A stretch of DNA of 64,000 bases from a phage: the sequence record OZ556245.1; one strand, 5' to 3'. This document shows, piece after piece, positions 1,306 through 62,776 of this stretch. Under the pieces are notes generated by a model, which worked only from the letters and a program-made list of their open reading frames with translations, was not told the origin of the DNA and ran no database searches. The translations under genes were made by a program, and so were the position numbers. Position 1 is the stretch's first letter; every line of letters starts with the position of its first letter.

Positions 1306-2144
1306 TAGAATGCTCCTTGGAAAATATTATCACCGCTAGTAGGTCTATTATACAAATACTCTATGCCACCAGGTTTAATATAGTTCCATGTCTGAAATGG
1401 ATGTGTCTGATATGGATGATATAGATGATTATAAGGATTAAATCCAGGAGTTCTCCAGGTAGTGTTCCAAGGAAAAGAATCGTTTTTAACCATCTTCTCA
1501 ATTAAATCTTTTATAGCTTTTTCACTATCAAAACTTTCTTTATTTTCCTTCGGCGAAAAAAGCTTATTTTCTACATCATTCCATGTATAAACTCGCTGAG
1601 CAGTTTTTGGAATATTGTCACGCTCTCCTCGAGCCATCCAATAAACAGGAACATTTAATATTTCACTCGCATGATCGCAGTGATGAGCGAGATCGTCAAT
1701 ATAACAAATTACGTTATATTTCTCTTTTGCCTTTTTAAACAACTCTTCTTTTGAAGAATCATGACCACACATCATTACTTCTGAGAAGGCACCAGGAAAA
1801 AGAGCATTCAAATTAAATTGACGATTCAACAGAGCGTCAATAGAATCACCCAATGCTGTGACAGCTACAAAATTATAATCTTCTTTTAATTTGTTAATTA
1901 CACACAGTGCATCTTTATATGGAGACAAGTAACGAATAAAATCTGATCGATTATATTTTTCAATTAGCTTGACACCGAGTTCTTCATCACAATTAAAGAG
2001 TTTACCTGGAGAAATAAATTTCTCATCTTGGATCATTTTTAAAATATGTTCTAACGGAAGATTATATTTCTGAGCAAAATAAGGAAGACCTGATTGCCAG
2101 CTTAAACATACTCCATCAATATCAGTTAAAATAGTAGGCTTCAT
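1305..2144 (-). CDS. HAD-superfamily-like hydrolase (30.2 position)
   Basis: 279-aa ORF; N-terminal DIDGV (HAD motif I-like) and later YIDD motif; synteny. Confidence 0.55.
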   Translation of the reverse strand: MKPTILTDIDGVCLSWQSGLPYFAQKYNLPLEHILKMIQDEKFISPGKLFNCDEELGVKLIEKYNRSDFIRYLSPYKDALCVINKLKEDYNFVAVTALGDSIDALLNRQFNLNALFPGAFSEVMMCGHDSSKEELFKKAKEKYNVICYIDDLAHHCDHASEILNVPVYWMARGERDNIPKTAQRVYTWNDVENKLFSPKENKESFDSEKAIKDLIEKMVKNDSFPWNTTWRTPGFNPYNHLYHPYQTHPFQTWNYIKPGGIEYLYNRPTSGDNIFQGAF

Positions 2145-2599
2145 AGAGAGTCTCTTAATAGGTTTAACACATCAATAAATTCAGCTTCGGTTAGTATTGT
2201 ATCATCTTTTGTTAGATCACTAGCCATGCTGTGCTTCAAAACTTTTCCTTTCGAGGCTTGTAATGCATCGCGAAAGCCCTTGTTTTGGAACGCTGCTTCA
2301 AAATATGCATTTGTGTATAATTCTTTCCACGCTGGAGAGTATCTTGAAAACGGAACTCCAAGCCAGAAGAGGGTCCCACGGTCCTGAGCTCTAGCATAAG
2401 ACCTTCCAGCTTGTTGGGCGGCAAGCCCGGATAACCCAAATATACGTCTTTGCTGTTCAACATTTTTCACCTTACATCCTTGGAGGAATCCTTCGAGACC
2501 TCCAAATTGAATGTCATCCATAACGAAAGGCCATTGGGCGAAATTACTTAATGCACATGATGGCCATTTAAAATTGCTTCTAATCTCTAACTCAGACAT
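2141..2599 (-). CDS. YbiA/NADAR-like domain protein (30.3 position)
   Basis: 152-aa ORF; residue pattern resembles the DUF1768/NADAR fold as recalled for T4 30.3; not verified by search. Confidence 0.5.
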   Translation of the reverse strand: MSELEIRSNFKWPSCALSNFAQWPFVMDDIQFGGLEGFLQGCKVKNVEQQRRIFGLSGLAAQQAGRSYARAQDRGTLFWLGVPFSRYSPAWKELYTNAYFEAAFQNKGFRDALQASKGKVLKHSMASDLTKDDTILTEAEFIDVLNLLRDSL

Positions 2600-3099: not shown

Positions 3100-3140
3100 A
3101 GTATTTTCCTCAGTAAGGGGCCGAAGCCCCTCATTTTATT

Positions 3141-3506
3141 TTAAATATCAAATTCGTTAAGAACTACATCAAAGATTGCTTCAAGATGCTCAGGGTTAGC
3201 TCTGTTACTCAGAATATGACGAATCCAAGTTTTAACCAGAAGCTTGCGATTAACACCATTCCAGCAAGGATGAGTCCCTAAATCGCGTTGACGAAAATCA
3301 TCATCCAAAGCGATTTTGAAGTTGGAACCTTCCATTGTGATTGAAACCGTGATGCCATTTTCAAATCGCATATAAACGTAGTTAGGAGTCATATACTGTT
3401 CAATTTCGCATACTGATCCATTTTGATGTTTCCAAAGGTAAATAGTATCAATAGAACCTGCAATACCATTAGAAACATATTTACGTTCAAAGTTGATGTA
3501 GTTCAT
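3141..3506 (-). CDS. hypothetical protein
   Basis: 121-aa ORF in minus-strand array. Confidence 0.5.
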   Translation of the reverse strand: MNYINFERKYVSNGIAGSIDTIYLWKHQNGSVCEIEQYMTPNYVYMRFENGITVSITMEGSNFKIALDDDFRQRDLGTHPCWNGVNRKLLVKTWIRHILSNRANPEHLEAIFDVVLNEFDI

Positions 3507-3574
3507 TTTTATTCTCCGAGATGTTTAATTGCAGTACAGGTATATAATATCATATCCTGTACCAAAGTAAACAA

Positions 3575-3907
3575 TTATTTTACTACTTTCCAGTGCTGCA
3601 TGTCAAGTTTACCAACTTTTTTCATCTTCTCAATTAAGCGTTCGGCGCGTTGGCGAGCTGTAACATAATACCATTCACCCAATTCATTTTGTTCAATTTT
3701 TCCAACGATTACTGTATTCAATTCATAAATCCAACCAGTAAAGAAATTATGAACTTGAATTGTAAAGGTGAAATCTGTTCCCATACCTTCTGTTGTTTCT
3801 ACTTCAATAATATCACCTTCAACTGCCATTAAGAACCACATAGTTTCATCATATTTACCATTGAAGCATTTAGTTTTAACTGCAGCGTTCAGATTAATCG
3901 TTTTCAT
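3575..3907 (-). CDS. hypothetical protein
   Basis: 110-aa ORF in minus-strand array. Confidence 0.5.
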   Translation of the reverse strand: MKTINLNAAVKTKCFNGKYDETMWFLMAVEGDIIEVETTEGMGTDFTFTIQVHNFFTGWIYELNTVIVGKIEQNELGEWYYVTARQRAERLIEKMKKVGKLDMQHWKVVK

Positions 3908-58558: not shown

Positions 58559-59587
58559 TTAAATCTTAGCATATTTAGATAGCCGCATTTTAGCCATCAA
58601 CCCTTGGGCAATATTATTTTTCATATATTCCATAATTTGTTTAGGGGTTGCACCTTCCTTTCTAATCATATCATTAACATCTTTTGATTTCCAGGGAGAT
58701 TTGTCCCAAAACATAACCCTTTCTCCTGCATCAACTAATTTAGTCATTCGTTTAATAGTGTCAGGATGACGAGGTTCATTATCTAAAACCCATACACGTC
58801 TATCTTTAAATGGAACAATTTCTAGGTCTAATTGACCACCCGTAATAGCTATACCATTTTCAATAAAAAGTGAATCTATAGGTCCTTCTAGAACATATAC
58901 ATCACCATCTTTGACTCGTTCGACTCCATAGATTTTTGTTGCCTCAGGATAAGCTTTGATGGTGATATATTTTTGAGGAGCATCTTTCTTTAATGCACGT
59001 CCTTGAAAAGACTCGGCTTTTCCGTTAGCATTATAAATTGGAATAACAAGACGAGGCTCAGGTATTTCCTTTTTATATGTTCCTGGCGCTATGCTATTAA
59101 CTAATTTAGGCCATTCGGTTGTAAACCAAAGATATTTCCATTTATTCTTTGGAATACAACGAGCTTTTACATATTTTATAATTGGATGGTCTTCCGCCAG
59201 TTTATCTAATCTAATGCATGACGGAAGAGATTTAATTATTTTCTTCTCAGGTTGTTTAGGAAGTTCTTTAGGTTTTTCTACTGGACGACTTTTACCTTTT
59301 TCTTTTCTTATTTCAAAGATATACTCACGATATAAATCAGGTTCAAACTCCTTTAAATATATTCCGATTGGTGCATGATAGTTGCAGTTATAACAATGAA
59401 TATTTCCTTCATTATTATCACCATAATACCATCCACGGGCTTTATTTTGGTCGGTTTTTGAATCTCCACAAACAGGGCATCTAAACCGTAATTTAAAAGT
59501 TGAACTATTATTTACTTGTGTGAATTTAGGTAAATGAGCTAATGCACGGTATGCAAACTCATTATCAATCCAAGGTATTGATGACAT
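58559..59587 (-). CDS. 61: gp61 DNA primase
   Basis: 342-aa ORF with zinc-ribbon (CPVCGDSK...CYNC) and TOPRIM region. Confidence 0.93.
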   Translation of the reverse strand: MSSIPWIDNEFAYRALAHLPKFTQVNNSSTFKLRFRCPVCGDSKTDQNKARGWYYGDNNEGNIHCYNCNYHAPIGIYLKEFEPDLYREYIFEIRKEKGKSRPVEKPKELPKQPEKKIIKSLPSCIRLDKLAEDHPIIKYVKARCIPKNKWKYLWFTTEWPKLVNSIAPGTYKKEIPEPRLVIPIYNANGKAESFQGRALKKDAPQKYITIKAYPEATKIYGVERVKDGDVYVLEGPIDSLFIENGIAITGGQLDLEIVPFKDRRVWVLDNEPRHPDTIKRMTKLVDAGERVMFWDKSPWKSKDVNDMIRKEGATPKQIMEYMKNNIAQGLMAKMRLSKYAKI

Positions 59588-59755
59588 TTTTACTCTTCTT
59601 TTTCTTTAGATTCCTCTTTTTTCTTTTTAGGAATCTGTTCAGGACCTTTATTTACTACAGCGCCTGATGTTGTTCCAGTGGAGATATTTTCAGGATTACC
59701 ACCTGAATCTCCAGCTACCATATCTTCTTTAATAAATTCTTTATATGTTTTCATA

Positions 59756-60112
59756 TTAACCTCTATTCATAAAAGCATTAAAAATTTGGTCATCAATCGA
59801 TGGAACAGCAACCTTTTCGGCATCATTTAGCAAATCATTAATTTCATCAGATAGCATAACGCATGTACCTTTATTTCCTGTAATTGTTACTGCACAATTA
59901 CGAACGTTTTCTTTATCAAATTTTAGGTTAATATTTTCGTAGTGAAAATCCTTTAATGCCGAATATATTTTTAAAATGAAATTGTCTTTTACTGCAATAA
60001 ACCCAACTTCACTATTAAAACGTGGTTCATGGAAACTGTAATAAACCTTTTCATCTATAAAATCGTATGAAATTTTTTCCATTTTTAAATATGAAAATTC
60101 AGAACTGTACAT
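59756..60112 (-). CDS. hypothetical protein
   Basis: 118-aa ORF. Confidence 0.5.
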   Translation of the reverse strand: MYSSEFSYLKMEKISYDFIDEKVYYSFHEPRFNSEVGFIAVKDNFILKIYSALKDFHYENINLKFDKENVRNCAVTITGNKGTCVMLSDEINDLLNDAEKVAVPSIDDQIFNAFMNRG

Positions 60113-60124
60113 ACTAACCTCTAA

Positions 60125-60418
60125 TTACTCACCTACCACTTCAGCGATGATATTTTTATTATTAAAGTTTTTATCGCAATACAGAACATAATTATACTGC
60201 ATTACACCGCCAGACTTAAGCTGTTTTTGCACTTCAGCTTTCATTTCAGGACGATCACGCTCAACGATATTCATAATATCTGCTTCAATTTGAGTTTCAA
60301 CTTCAGTCTGATCTGCAGTCATAGACCATTCACACAAATCTTTGTCATAACCCGCCATAGCAGGCTGAGCAGCGCAAGAAGATAAAGCAAAAATTGTAGC
60401 AAAGATAAATTTTTTCAT
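60125..60418 (-). CDS. sp: Spackle-like periplasmic protein
   Basis: 97-aa ORF with signal peptide (MKKFIFATIFALSSCAAQPAMAG); length and position match T4 sp (61.3). Confidence 0.65.
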   Translation of the reverse strand: MKKFIFATIFALSSCAAQPAMAGYDKDLCEWSMTADQTEVETQIEADIMNIVERDRPEMKAEVQKQLKSGGVMQYNYVLYCDKNFNNKNIIAEVVGE

Positions 60419-60476
60419 GATAATCTCCTCAGTAGTTTATGTTTATAGTATCTCAATTTCCAATAAAAGTAAACAG

Positions 60477-60776
60477 CTATTTTAAAACTTCTGCATAATC
60501 ACATGTTACAAACTGTTTCTCTAACTTGGCGATTTTACGAAAGTATCTTTTGCATTGACGAATCTGTCGCTTCGTAGGGCGCACAGCAAACTTAATAAAT
60601 TCCACTCGACCAAATGGAGGACTTTCTTCTGCTGGAATATCTAATACCAATTCCCACGTATCTACAATAAGTGCTTTGAATTGAGTATTTTTCCTGACAT
60701 TATACGGAGTAGGTTTAAATAAAACAATATGCATATTATCCTCGGCAATCCACTTCACATACTTTCTTGTCATCAA
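60477..60776 (-). CDS. hypothetical protein
   Basis: 99-aa ORF. Confidence 0.5.
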   Translation of the reverse strand: MMTRKYVKWIAEDNMHIVLFKPTPYNVRKNTQFKALIVDTWELVLDIPAEESPPFGRVEFIKFAVRPTKRQIRQCKRYFRKIAKLEKQFVTCDYAEVLK

Positions 60777-60918
60777 TGAAAGCTTTAACTAATGCTTTAT
60801 TAACTTCAGCGTATTGATTAGTAGCCCATTGAACGTCATCTTTCATCATTGTGATTTCTTTAGTAAACATGCTTTCGTTCTTAAACCACCCCATAAAAAC
60901 TACCTTTACCAATTCCAT
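60736..60918 (-). CDS. dmd: Dmd-like antitoxin candidate
   Basis: 60-aa ORF at the position of T4 61.5/dmd immediately downstream of gene 41; sequence identity not verified. Confidence 0.45.
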   Translation of the reverse strand: MELVKVVFMGWFKNESMFTKEITMMKDDVQWATNQYAEVNKALVKAFIDDKKVCEVDCRG

Positions 60919-60924
60919 AACAAT

Positions 60925-60970
60925 CTCCTCATTTAACCAACAAGACTACTATACCATAGTCTTGTTGGCT
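60925..60970 (-). promoter_or_regulatory. early-promoter-like element upstream of the dmd-position ORF
   Basis: tataccatag...cttgtaaac on plus strand (minus-strand -10/-35 pattern). Confidence 0.4.
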
Positions 60971-60976
60971 TGTAAA

Positions 60977-62404
60977 CTAAAATTTTAATTCATTTGCCAA
61001 AGCATCTAACTGAGCTCGAGCAGATTCGTTTCTTTGATAGCGATTCTGTTCAGCCTGAATCTGCTGTGAACCTGCTACTTCGTTCACTTCAGTTGGAGTA
61101 GAATCTTGTTCAATTTCTACCCATTTCTGATTTCCTTTTTGAACACCCATCAAAAACTTATTCCATTTATTCTTATCACCGTATCGTGATTTGATTTGCT
61201 TAATGAGTTGTTGTTCAGCAGCTGCTAACTCCTCGGTTTCAATGACCGCAAGCATAAAATCGGCTGTTGCTGGAAGACCGGCAGATTCTGCGATATCGCT
61301 CATGTTAACATCAGAAGAATCCCAAGCTTGTTTACCAACCTGTGCTGCAGTCCAAAGAACAGTTTCAGTTTCAACAGCCAGAGCACGCAATTCCTCTGCG
61401 ATAGCTTTAACAGTTGTGTAACTATTTTCTGAGTAAACTCTGATGCGGCAAGATTTACAAATACCCAGATAGTCAACAATAATGATTGTTGGAACAAAAT
61501 TCTTCTTGAGCTTCAATTCATTCAAGAGAGACCTGAATGTATTAGCGTCTGCTCCACCAGTAGGATACTGTTTAACGATTAAACGGCCGAGAGTAGATTT
61601 CTCACGCCATTTTTCCATTTTTCCTTTATACTCAGCGTAAGAAATATGCCCATCATCAATGTCATCAAGAGAAACATCAAGCATATTAGCGTCAATACGC
61701 TTAGCACAGACTTCTTCTGCCATTTCCATGGAAATGTAAAGAACATTATGTCCGAGCTGCAAATAATCTGCTGCCAATGAACACAGACCTAATGACTTAC
61801 CGACGTTAACACCAGCCATTAAAACGTTCAGTGTTCCAGTTTCAGCTCCGCCTTTAGTAATTTTATTTAGAATTTTGAGTTTAAATGGAACCTTACGAGC
61901 TTTATTCATATAAGATAGCCAACGTGCTTCGTAGTCATCTATCCAATCATGACCAACGTAACTATCAAATGAAATTGATAATGCTTGGCGCATGATGTCA
62001 GGAATAGCACCTACATCTGGCATTTTCTTATTTCGTTTTTCTGGAGGAAGCTCAGCATTAGTTTGAATTTCAATTATTTTAGACGTAGCATTAAACATCG
62101 CCCTTTGCTGAACATATTTTTCTGTTTCTTTTACTAACCAGCTGTGGTCTTCCGGAGAATCGGCTAGTTTTGAAATAAGTGTTTTTACACCAGAATATTC
62201 TGTTTCAGTAAATGAACTATTTTCTAATGCAACATTTAACGCATTAATAGATGGAACGCTATGGTATTCATTAACATGAGATTTAATTAATTTGAATGTA
62301 TTTTTAGCTGGACCACTTTCAAAATATTCTGAATCCATATATGGCCAAACTTTTGAAAAATAAGCTTGATCAAATATGAGATGGGAAAGAATAATTTCTA
62401 CCAC
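60977..62404 (-). CDS. 41: gp41 replicative DNA helicase (DnaB-like)
   Basis: 475-aa ORF with Walker A (GVNVGKS). Confidence 0.93.
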   Translation of the reverse strand: MVEIILSHLIFDQAYFSKVWPYMDSEYFESGPAKNTFKLIKSHVNEYHSVPSINALNVALENSSFTETEYSGVKTLISKLADSPEDHSWLVKETEKYVQQRAMFNATSKIIEIQTNAELPPEKRNKKMPDVGAIPDIMRQALSISFDSYVGHDWIDDYEARWLSYMNKARKVPFKLKILNKITKGGAETGTLNVLMAGVNVGKSLGLCSLAADYLQLGHNVLYISMEMAEEVCAKRIDANMLDVSLDDIDDGHISYAEYKGKMEKWREKSTLGRLIVKQYPTGGADANTFRSLLNELKLKKNFVPTIIIVDYLGICKSCRIRVYSENSYTTVKAIAEELRALAVETETVLWTAAQVGKQAWDSSDVNMSDIAESAGLPATADFMLAVIETEELAAAEQQLIKQIKSRYGDKNKWNKFLMGVQKGNQKWVEIEQDSTPTEVNEVAGSQQIQAEQNRYQRNESARAQLDALANELKF

Positions 62405-62413
62405 ACTTACTCC

Positions 62414-62776
62414 TTAAAAGAATTTAAATTTTTTCTTTGACCTTTTATTAAATGCATCTTGTAGTTGCATTGTAATACATTTTTCTACATGAGGAGCTAA
62501 CTCAGCTTTTCTTTCTTGGTCAAGAACAGCAAAGTCCATTACGACTTTTCCATCAACCCAATCTAATTTTGTCACATACACAATGTGTGTAGAACCATCT
62601 TCTAGTTTAATGACAATCTCCTGGATAACATTTTCCATGGCAGATTTAATTATCTTAAGAGATTCATTAAAAAGACGTTCTTTTCTTTCTTCTTCCCCCT
62701 CCGAAGAGGGGGATTCATCGATAATTTCTAGATCTAAATCTAAATCATCTTTATTCATTAAATTCTTCCATATCAC
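62414..62776 (-). CDS. 40: gp40 head assembly protein candidate
   Basis: 120-aa ORF between 41 and uvsX. Confidence 0.6.
   Translation of the reverse strand: MIWKNLMNKDDLDLDLEIIDESPSSEGEEERKERLFNESLKIIKSAMENVIQEIVIKLEDGSTHIVYVTKLDWVDGKVVMDFAVLDQERKAELAPHVEKCITMQLQDAFNKRSKKKFKFF

Follow-up and report, generated by a model that had tools for sequence, protein, structure and literature searches.

A T2-type anti-toxin island between genes 41 and 61 of a T4-like phage, with a single-module AdfA paralogue and a possible head-associated mini-protein, gp61.1

Between the helicase gene 41 and the primase gene 61, phage T4 carries a cluster of small genes, dmd-tifA-sp-adfA-61.1. It has been published as the 'anti-TA (toxin-antitoxin) island', in which dmd is directed against RnlA, tifA (gene 61.4) against ToxN and adfA (gene 61.2) against DarT (PMC9391042). 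In the same study, T4 escaped toxIN by amplification of dmd-tifA, ToxN being neutralised by TifA, and the other genes of the island were called 'attractive anti-toxin candidates' (Srikant et al. 2022, PMC9391042). The corresponding interval is described here in a 64,000-nucleotide (nt) stretch of phage DNA (OZ556245.1), hereafter the window, to which all positions refer. The initial annotation had placed five small minus-strand open reading frames (ORFs) between primase 61 and helicase 41 and had read them as an island of anti-superinfection and antitoxin functions. The five ORFs are found where they had been placed, and the core of the reading is right, since with sp this is the anti-TA island already in print.

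The interval is very probably the T-even accessory early-gene island between genes 41 and 61 in its T2/RB32-type configuration. It agrees with the T4 island in position, strand, early promoter and gene order, and differs from it in the slot between sp and 61.1, which holds the 208-amino acid (aa) adfA in T4 and a 118-aa paralogue here. As a counter-defence island the locus is therefore already known, being the common T2-type form of the published island, and it adds nothing. The one point on the locus that might be new concerns gp61.1, which is probably not a toxin inhibitor and which shows the signatures of a head protein. The features of the interval, followed by the two flanking genes, are as follows.

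59590–59754, minus strand: gene 61.1, 54 aa (ORF list and match to T4 gp61.1)
59756–60112, minus strand: AdfA-family paralogue, 118 aa, of the T2 '61.2' / RB32ORF033c type
60113–60124, minus strand: junction between sp and the 118-aa ORF, 12 nt, with a remnant of the adfA 3′ end, TAGAGGTTAGT
60125–60418, minus strand: sp (Spackle), 97 aa with signal peptide
60419–60476, minus strand: intergenic region between tifA and sp, with a weaker early-promoter-like site
60477–60734, minus strand: tifA (gene 61.4), 85 aa from the ATG at 60734
60736–60918, minus strand: dmd, 60 aa (Pfam Dmd, PDB 5hy3_B)
60919–60976, minus strand: intergenic region between 41 and dmd, with an early-type promoter and an overlapping inverted repeat
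58559–59587: flanking primase gene 61, 342 aa (ORF list)
60977–62404: flanking helicase gene 41, 475 aa (ORF list)

By sequence comparison, the five ORFs are real genes and not chance frames, because each belongs to a PHROG family (expect value, E, ≤ 1e-34), most codon differences from RB18 and T4 are synonymous (nine synonymous to one nonsynonymous in sp) and a megablast search with positions 59400–61100 found 510 phage records with a DNA identity of at least 90%. Nearly all of these records are Tequatrovirus of Escherichia, Shigella or Yersinia. The DNA of the interval is 97–99% identical to that of hundreds of Tequatrovirus genomes, and its nearest match, vB_Eco_ZCEC15 (99.1%), has identical gene calls. 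The window helicase and T4 gp41 share 99% identity, the base composition of the interval is unremarkable against its surroundings, and an Rfam scan of positions 59300–61200 returned no RNA family. The comparison with the T4 61.1–61.5 proteins that had been proposed as a check gave 96–98% identity for Dmd, gp61.4, Sp and gp61.1. For the 118-aa ORF it brought out homology to the AdfA family, and not the 208-aa gp61.2 of T4. The functions proposed for the island are all drawn from homology.

The 54-aa Lys/Glu-rich frame that the initial annotation had derived by hand, at about 59590–59754, is borne out as gene 61.1, and its product is 96% identical to T4 gp61.1. The protein is laid out as a decapeptide like a capsid-targeting sequence, a potential cleavage site (I-K-E10|D11), a segment resembling the N-terminus of the mature T4 major capsid protein gp23* (residues 11–38), and a Lys/Glu tail. 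The N-terminal decapeptide of the T4 internal proteins (IPI, IPII and IPIII) is an experimentally defined capsid-targeting sequence, sufficient to bring foreign proteins into the head, in which residues 4 and 7 serve targeting, and residues 8 and 10 processing (PMC9026906). Residues 1–10 of gp61.1 (MKTYKEFIKE) match the decapeptide of IPII and IPIII (MKTYQEFIAE) at eight of ten positions and retain Y4, F7, I8 and E10; T4 gp61.1 and IPI both begin with MKTFKEF. Among all frames of the window, gp61.1 is the only one with an N-terminal motif of this type. The prohead protease gp21 cleaves after L/I-x-E, a motif that I8-K9-E10|D11 fits, and all gp61.1 orthologues that were read, the long forms (LFE|DM) included, retain a hydrophobic-x-E|DM junction.

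A profile built from 15 members of the gp61.1 family was searched against 177,635 distinct PDB sequences and returned only T4 gp23, both as the full-length protein (residues 58–94, E 1.3e-5) and as mature gp23* (E 5e-4). The matched stretch of the full-length protein spans the maturation site, E65|A66. By BLASTP, residues 2–38 of gp61.1 align without gaps with residues 57–93 of gp23 (43% identity), and L63-T64-E65|A66 of gp23 falls in register with I8-K9-E10|D11 of gp61.1. From the cleavage Glu onwards, 16 of 29 residues are identical (GD-G-N--NI--G-TSGAV---GP). Residues 11–38 of gp61.1 correspond to residues 66–93 of gp23*, at the position of the 25-residue 'N-fist'. In both proteins a Glu precedes the new N-terminus, and the likeness is ungapped. 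After the 'GP', however, gp61.1 ends in its Lys/Glu tail; there is no HK97-fold body with A and P domains and E-loop, the gp23 match being limited to residues 57–94 and gp61.1 measuring 54 aa in total.

It could be argued that both likenesses, that to the capsid-targeting sequence and that to gp23, are products of chance or low complexity, as gp61.1 is short, with a Gly/Thr/Ser-rich middle and a Lys/Glu-rich end, and its 15 family members gave no match in Pfam even at E 10. Spurious matches would hardly be expected, however, to single out gp23 entries from the whole PDB set, or to run ungapped in register with the cleavage site. A database-wide tblastn search with gp61.1 also reached gene 23 of Acinetobacter phage 133 (E 3e-4), the long-form orthologues independently match the same gp23 segment, and some homologues are named 'major capsid domain-containing protein' in UniRef and NCBI. 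With the eight matching positions of a decapeptide unique in the window added to this, coincidence is a very improbable explanation.

The distribution of gp61.1 bears on whether it belongs with the toxin inhibitors at all. By tblastn, 1397 phage records contain a homologue, with hosts that include Escherichia, Klebsiella, Acinetobacter, Aeromonas and Enterobacter, a spread far wider than that of the other island genes. In every distant phage opened (of Aeromonas, Acinetobacter and Pectobacterium), the orthologue lies directly upstream of the primase gene, and in Aeromonas phage avDM1 it is the sole gene annotated between 41 and 61. The avDM1 arrangement suggests that the counter-defence genes may be insertions beside a conserved core gene.

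On the alternative view, gp61.1 and the 118-aa protein would both be further cytoplasmic inhibitors of host toxin-antitoxin systems or other defences. This view draws on the company they keep, as dmd, tifA and adfA all encode toxin inhibitors, on the membership of the 118-aa protein in the AdfA family, and on the candidacy proposed by Srikant et al. (PMC9391042) for the remaining island genes. It is also compatible in part with a head protein, because true internal proteins can be counter-defence factors, so that one reading of gp61.1 does not shut out the other. A gene that is present across many host genera and always abuts primase, even where it stands alone, does not show the pattern of a fast-turnover counter-defence gene, however, and the detectable similarities of gp61.1 are to head proteins only. 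The joint inhibitor explanation is regarded as unlikely. The suggestion in the initial annotation that the unassigned ORFs are additional inhibitors is accordingly weakened for gp61.1, given its head-protein signatures and its conservation far beyond the variable island; it stands for the 118-aa ORF, a legitimate AdfA-family candidate.

In the preferred reading, gp61.1 is targeted to the prohead and cleaved by gp21, and the signatures described above give this close to an even chance. The N-terminal capsid-targeting sequence would carry gp61.1 into the prohead core, and the gp21 protease would cut it after Glu10, leaving a 44-residue peptide that starts at D11 (DMVAGDSGGNPENISTGTTSGAVVNK) and combines a gp23*-like N-terminus with a charged tail. 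Once released, this peptide could occupy sites that otherwise receive the gp23 N-terminus, remain with the DNA, or just escape. More broadly, and somewhat short of an even chance, gp61.1 could be an unrecognised head-associated mini-protein across T4-like phages, whose peptide might occupy gp23-N-terminus sites in the capsid or scaffold, or travel with the DNA. If this were true, gene 61.1 would have been misfiled as part of the anti-TA island, and T4 head assembly would have an overlooked conserved component.

The T4 internal proteins IPI, IPII and IPIII are the closest parallel. They share with gp61.1 the N-terminal decapeptide, I-x-E at residues 8–10, a small and charged character and early-type promoters, and gp61.1 thus carries the sequence features by which a capsid-targeted internal protein would be recognised. 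It differs from them in measuring only 54 aa, in its place at the replication-gene cluster and not at an internal-protein locus, and in being much more widely conserved. A precedent for small ORFs derived from a head-protein gene is provided by T4 alt.-1 and alt.-2, which by annotation arose from a duplicated 5′ part of the packaged head-protein gene alt; these have another source gene, adjoin their parent and are not widely conserved.

Four observations weigh against packaging and cleavage of gp61.1. The long-form orthologues (154–158 aa) do not carry an IP-type targeting sequence. According to a review, small peptides produced by cleavage are believed to exit the prohead. The searchable literature holds no report on gp61.1 or its sequence strings, and no virion-proteomics or structural report of its presence in virions or heads. 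Lastly, no late promoter (TATAAATA) is found in or near the island. The last of these is not decisive, because ipI, ipII and ipIII of T4 have early-type promoters and likewise no late-promoter consensus directly upstream; by the same token, early expression of 61.1 is compatible with packaging.

Early expression can also be turned to a different account, in which gp61.1 is not packaged at all and uses its likeness to the gp23 N-terminus in the cytoplasm, as a decoy or regulator acting on a host capsid sensor, on gp21, or on the handling of gp23 by gp31/GroEL. The likeness to gp23 residues 57–93 is specific, gp61.1 is made from early transcripts, ahead of gp23, and several bacterial defences have been reported to respond to capsid proteins, Gol-Lit acting on gp23 being one example. 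The Gol segment, however, presumably lies just downstream of the gp23 region copied in gp61.1 and not within it. A cytoplasmic decoy would also have no need of a capsid-targeting decapeptide with both its targeting and its processing residues intact, and conservation of the x-E|DM junction across the family does not favour it either. This account is considered quite unlikely.

Two variants of gp61.1 were seen among the homologues. The long form of 154–158 aa (phrog_2086) is carried by an Acinetobacter phage and by a metagenomic contig that is T4-like but diverged (locus L011, positions 3113–3577; locus L006, positions 1165–1641), and consists of a domain of about 113 aa without detectable relatives, then LFE|DM, a segment like the gp23 N-terminus, and a basic tail. 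The T6-type gp61.1 (P0026 and P0028; 62 aa) has a different tail, KKKKRNLKKKKSKNVINTLD, in the part that corresponds to 59590–59630 of the window, as might result from a frameshift within the A-rich stretch coding for KKKKEESKEKEE. This tail swap suggests that the charged tail is the least constrained part of the protein.

The 118-aa protein belongs to the AdfA family: it passes the Pfam gathering threshold for AdfA (PF23813; 34.6 bits, cutoff 27), matching profile positions 113–211 only, and is 35% identical to residues 109–208 of T4 gp61.2. It also falls into a PHROG of its own, of 118-aa proteins (phrog_4122, E 4.7e-72). The T2 gene annotated as '61.2' encodes a 93% identical protein, the RB18 counterpart is annotated as having 'some similarity to gp61.2; RB32ORF033c', and about 295 phage records carry the gene at 80% identity or higher (tblastn).

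The AlphaFold2 model of the protein (mean predicted local distance difference test score, pLDDT, 83; predicted template modelling score 0.72) has five antiparallel strands followed by a helix, a strand, a helix and a C-terminal helix. The model of a T4-type AdfA (pLDDT 72.5) shows this topology twice. On these models the 118-aa protein is a one-module paralogue, and not a truncated adfA, because one module is predicted here and two are predicted in AdfA. An internal duplication of AdfA is suggested mainly by the repeated topology, as the comparison of its N-terminal and C-terminal halves by sequence reached only E 0.017. With 118 aa against the roughly 208–216 aa of the two-module proteins, the protein is not a full-length AdfA, and the gene should be named an AdfA-like single-module paralogue rather than AdfA.

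In addition to the module topology, the two share a 'G-I-VKDN-I' strand motif and a C-terminal tail of 13 residues, IDDQIFNAFMNRG. All 17 family members that were aligned, short and long, have this tail without change; they measure 118–216 aa and share as little as 24–40% identity (two alignments). In two diverged metagenomic loci the tail is encoded with synonymous differences, and in one of these the next gene is not 61.1; this points to a constraint on the protein and not on a downstream ribosome-binding site. Diverged orthologues of the 118-aa protein (119–125 aa, 40–49% identity) keep both module and tail. The model matched none of the solved folds, a BFVD search with it returned only T4-like relatives, a phmmer search of 1.84 billion representative sequences gave three real relatives and one low-complexity match, and a word-indexed search gave five near-identical clusters. 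Judged by these searches, the family is confined to T4-like phages.

These data also bear on the idea that the 118-aa ORF is a functionless remnant left by duplication of adfA and now decaying. With half the length of AdfA, absence from T4 and a location that is prone to recombination, next to a 49-nt repeat, it might be taken for one. A remnant would not be expected, however, to persist as an intact 118-aa frame in about 295 records, to show seven synonymous and two nonsynonymous codon differences to RB18, to be given a confident predicted fold, or to have diverged orthologues that retain its module and tail. The idea can be given very little credence.

The single-module paralogue may instead be an inhibitor of a toxin or of another defence, for which the family membership argues with a likelihood slightly below even. 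Its beta-rich module, which varies between family members, would bind some variant of a DarT-like or other toxin, and the invariant tail IDDQIFNAFMNRG would contact a constant, shared partner. The AdfA family appears to consist of variable one- or two-module proteins with an invariant 13-residue tail, often present as tandem paralogues that recombine through the 49-nt repeat, and the tail partner and module swapping would offer a concrete handle on how AdfA-type inhibitors work and diversify.

Several points count against a DarT-directed function. The N-terminal AdfA module is absent from the 118-aa protein. At a column of AdfA that holds His in T4-type and Arg in RB69-like proteins, the aligned residue is Asn72; His at this column enables neutralisation of DarT1 (RB69 R164H), if the aligned column is, as it appears to be, the published 'position 164'. 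Furthermore, T2, which is counted as being without adfA, becomes sensitive to DarTG1 when adfN is removed (PMC11257639). Since T2 carries the 93% identical copy, the 118-aa protein seems to give no native-level protection against that DarT1. Native-level failure against DarT1 is also true of full-length T4 AdfA. The missing His/Arg determinant and the failure of the T2 copy to rescue adfN-less T2 on DarTG1 likewise reduce the case for the joint inhibitor explanation discussed above. The one-module architecture would account for the scoring of T2 and similar phages as adfA-negative.

A homologue of adfN (gene 30.3) is present elsewhere in the window (2144–2599, minus strand; tblastn with T4 gp30.3, 96.7% identity over 152 of 152 aa), followed by genes 30.2, 31 and cd in the T4 order. 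AdfN is a NADAR-type DNA ADP-ribosylglycohydrolase that counters DarTG1 (PMC11257639). The main anti-DarTG1 factor is thus present in this phage though full-length adfA is absent.

The arrangement of the paralogues is best seen in RB18, where the order is 61.1, 118-aa gene, adfA, sp. The tandem pair (RB18 locus positions 1318–2302) has a 49-nt direct repeat (98% identity) at the 3′ ends of the 118-aa gene and adfA. When T4, RB18 and the window are compared at the DNA level, T4 corresponds to RB18 without the 118-aa gene, the breakpoint lying within the 49-nt repeat, and the window corresponds to RB18 without adfA (RB18 positions 321–935 missing). T4 and the window look like two reciprocal single-gene derivatives, which would amount to a presence/absence polymorphism driven by recombination. 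The remnant of the adfA 3′ end in the window, TAGAGGTTAGT, now provides the Shine-Dalgarno sequence of the 118-aa gene. Both genes are also present in PhiZZ23 and, judged by matches about 610 bp longer, in SH-1, SH-2 and ADUt. A simple microhomology deletion was considered for the junction between sp and the 118-aa gene and set aside; the window has extra bases compared with the expected TGAATA product, for which such a deletion would not fully account.

Two diverged islands (loci L011 and L012) carry other small genes, at positions 1536–1826 and 2887–3081 of L011 and 1–720, 1075–1512 and 2071–2262 of L012. Among these islands' products, a 96-aa protein (phrog_2110) occupies the dmd position, and a 63–64-aa protein (phrog_3249), also present in the RB69 flank printed in PMC11257639, stands before 61.1. 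A 145-aa protein (phrog_8539) ends with an AdfA-type tail, VDDQIFNAFMKRD, and next to sp lies a gene that resembles those of homing endonucleases, with NUMOD3 and I-TevI DNA-binding domains. For L011, the idea that the 96-aa protein at the dmd position is an Arr-like ADP-ribosyltransferase was considered and dropped, as it found no support in Pfam.

The remaining three genes are close copies of characterised T4 genes, and the functions of their products, shown in T4, are carried over here from 96–98% protein identity. The 60-aa ORF that the initial annotation had noted at the dmd position is Dmd: 59 of 60 residues are those of T4 Dmd (98.3%), the one substitution being T34N, and it matches Pfam Dmd (PF17587; 153.9 bits, cutoff 27) and PDB 5hy3_B, 'Antitoxin Dmd' (E 9.6e-37). 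It is the first gene after helicase 41 and has a promoter-like site ahead of it. Dmd is presumed to be an antitoxin mimic that would bind and block the RNase toxins RnlA and LsoA.

The next gene had been described as an unassigned ORF of 99 aa. The gene is present, but its length and its status are different: it is the characterised tifA, and the 99-aa frame (60477–60776) is a listing artefact that begins at a TTG inside dmd. TifA is 85 aa long, from an ATG at 60734 that lies one base past the dmd stop with a GAGGA Shine-Dalgarno sequence in front, and the same start is annotated in T4, RB18 and the nearest relative. The protein is 96.5% identical to T4 gp61.4 over 85 of 85 aa and matches Pfam DUF7279 (PF23945; 73.1 bits, cutoff 24.5). 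According to Guegler et al. (PMC10853763), TifA binds RNA and ToxN, the homologues of T2, T4 and T6, more than 96% identical to one another, all neutralise ToxN, and residue 41 tunes the potency of the inhibition; residue 41 of the window protein is Phe, the weak T4-type allele. It also has the basic triple K55, R56 and R59. A methods heading of the same paper names a TifA-RB69 variant K55A R56A R59A (PMC10853763), and on the strength of that name the triple is read as probable RNA-binding residues. TifA is thus presumably an RNA-binding inhibitor of the type III toxin ToxN, and would bind RNA and ToxN so that the toxin is trapped as an inactive ribonucleoprotein.

The 97-aa ORF, recognised from the start as a signal-peptide protein at the Spackle position, is Sp (97.9% identity to T4 Sp). 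It matches Pfam T4_Spackle (PF25676; 152 bits) and PDB 6x6o (E 2.2e-61), and the solved mature chain 7cn6 aligns to residues 23–97, which confirms the signal peptide, since that chain begins at residue 23. Spackle would be exported to the periplasm and there inhibit the gp5 tail lysozyme of incoming, superinfecting phages, so that its likely role is superinfection exclusion.

Transcription of this minus-strand island would start at an early promoter just behind gene 41, and a second promoter-like site, weaker than the first, precedes sp. The first site (60976–60948; 10 of 12 in the promoter scan) consists of TTTACA, a 17-nt spacer and TATAGT with an upstream TG, in agreement with the early promoter upstream of dmd that is published as driving dmd-tifA (PMC9391042). 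The second, at about 60473–60445 in the gap between tifA and sp, was read by eye as TTTACT, a 17-nt spacer and TACTAT, and scores 8 of 12 where the scanner threshold is 9. A promoter downstream of tifA is mentioned by Srikant et al. 2022 (PMC9391042).

The stop of gene 41 is directly followed by a perfect 12-bp inverted repeat (60937–60948 and 60957–60968), which overlaps the -10 element of the dmd promoter. As RNA its stem grows to 15 bp, with a folding free energy of -22.1 kcal/mol (z -5.8), and in T4 the stem is kept through a double change from A-T to G-C. Similar overlaps of hairpin and early promoter lie upstream of T4 ipI, ipII and ipIII. The hairpin at 60937–60968 could end or stabilise the upstream transcript.

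A listing artefact like that of the 99-aa frame was noted beyond the helicase gene. The ORF of gene 40 (62414–62776, minus strand) is listed from a GTG as 120 aa. The T4 gene starts at an ATG six codons later (114 aa), and over that span the window protein is 100% identical to it.

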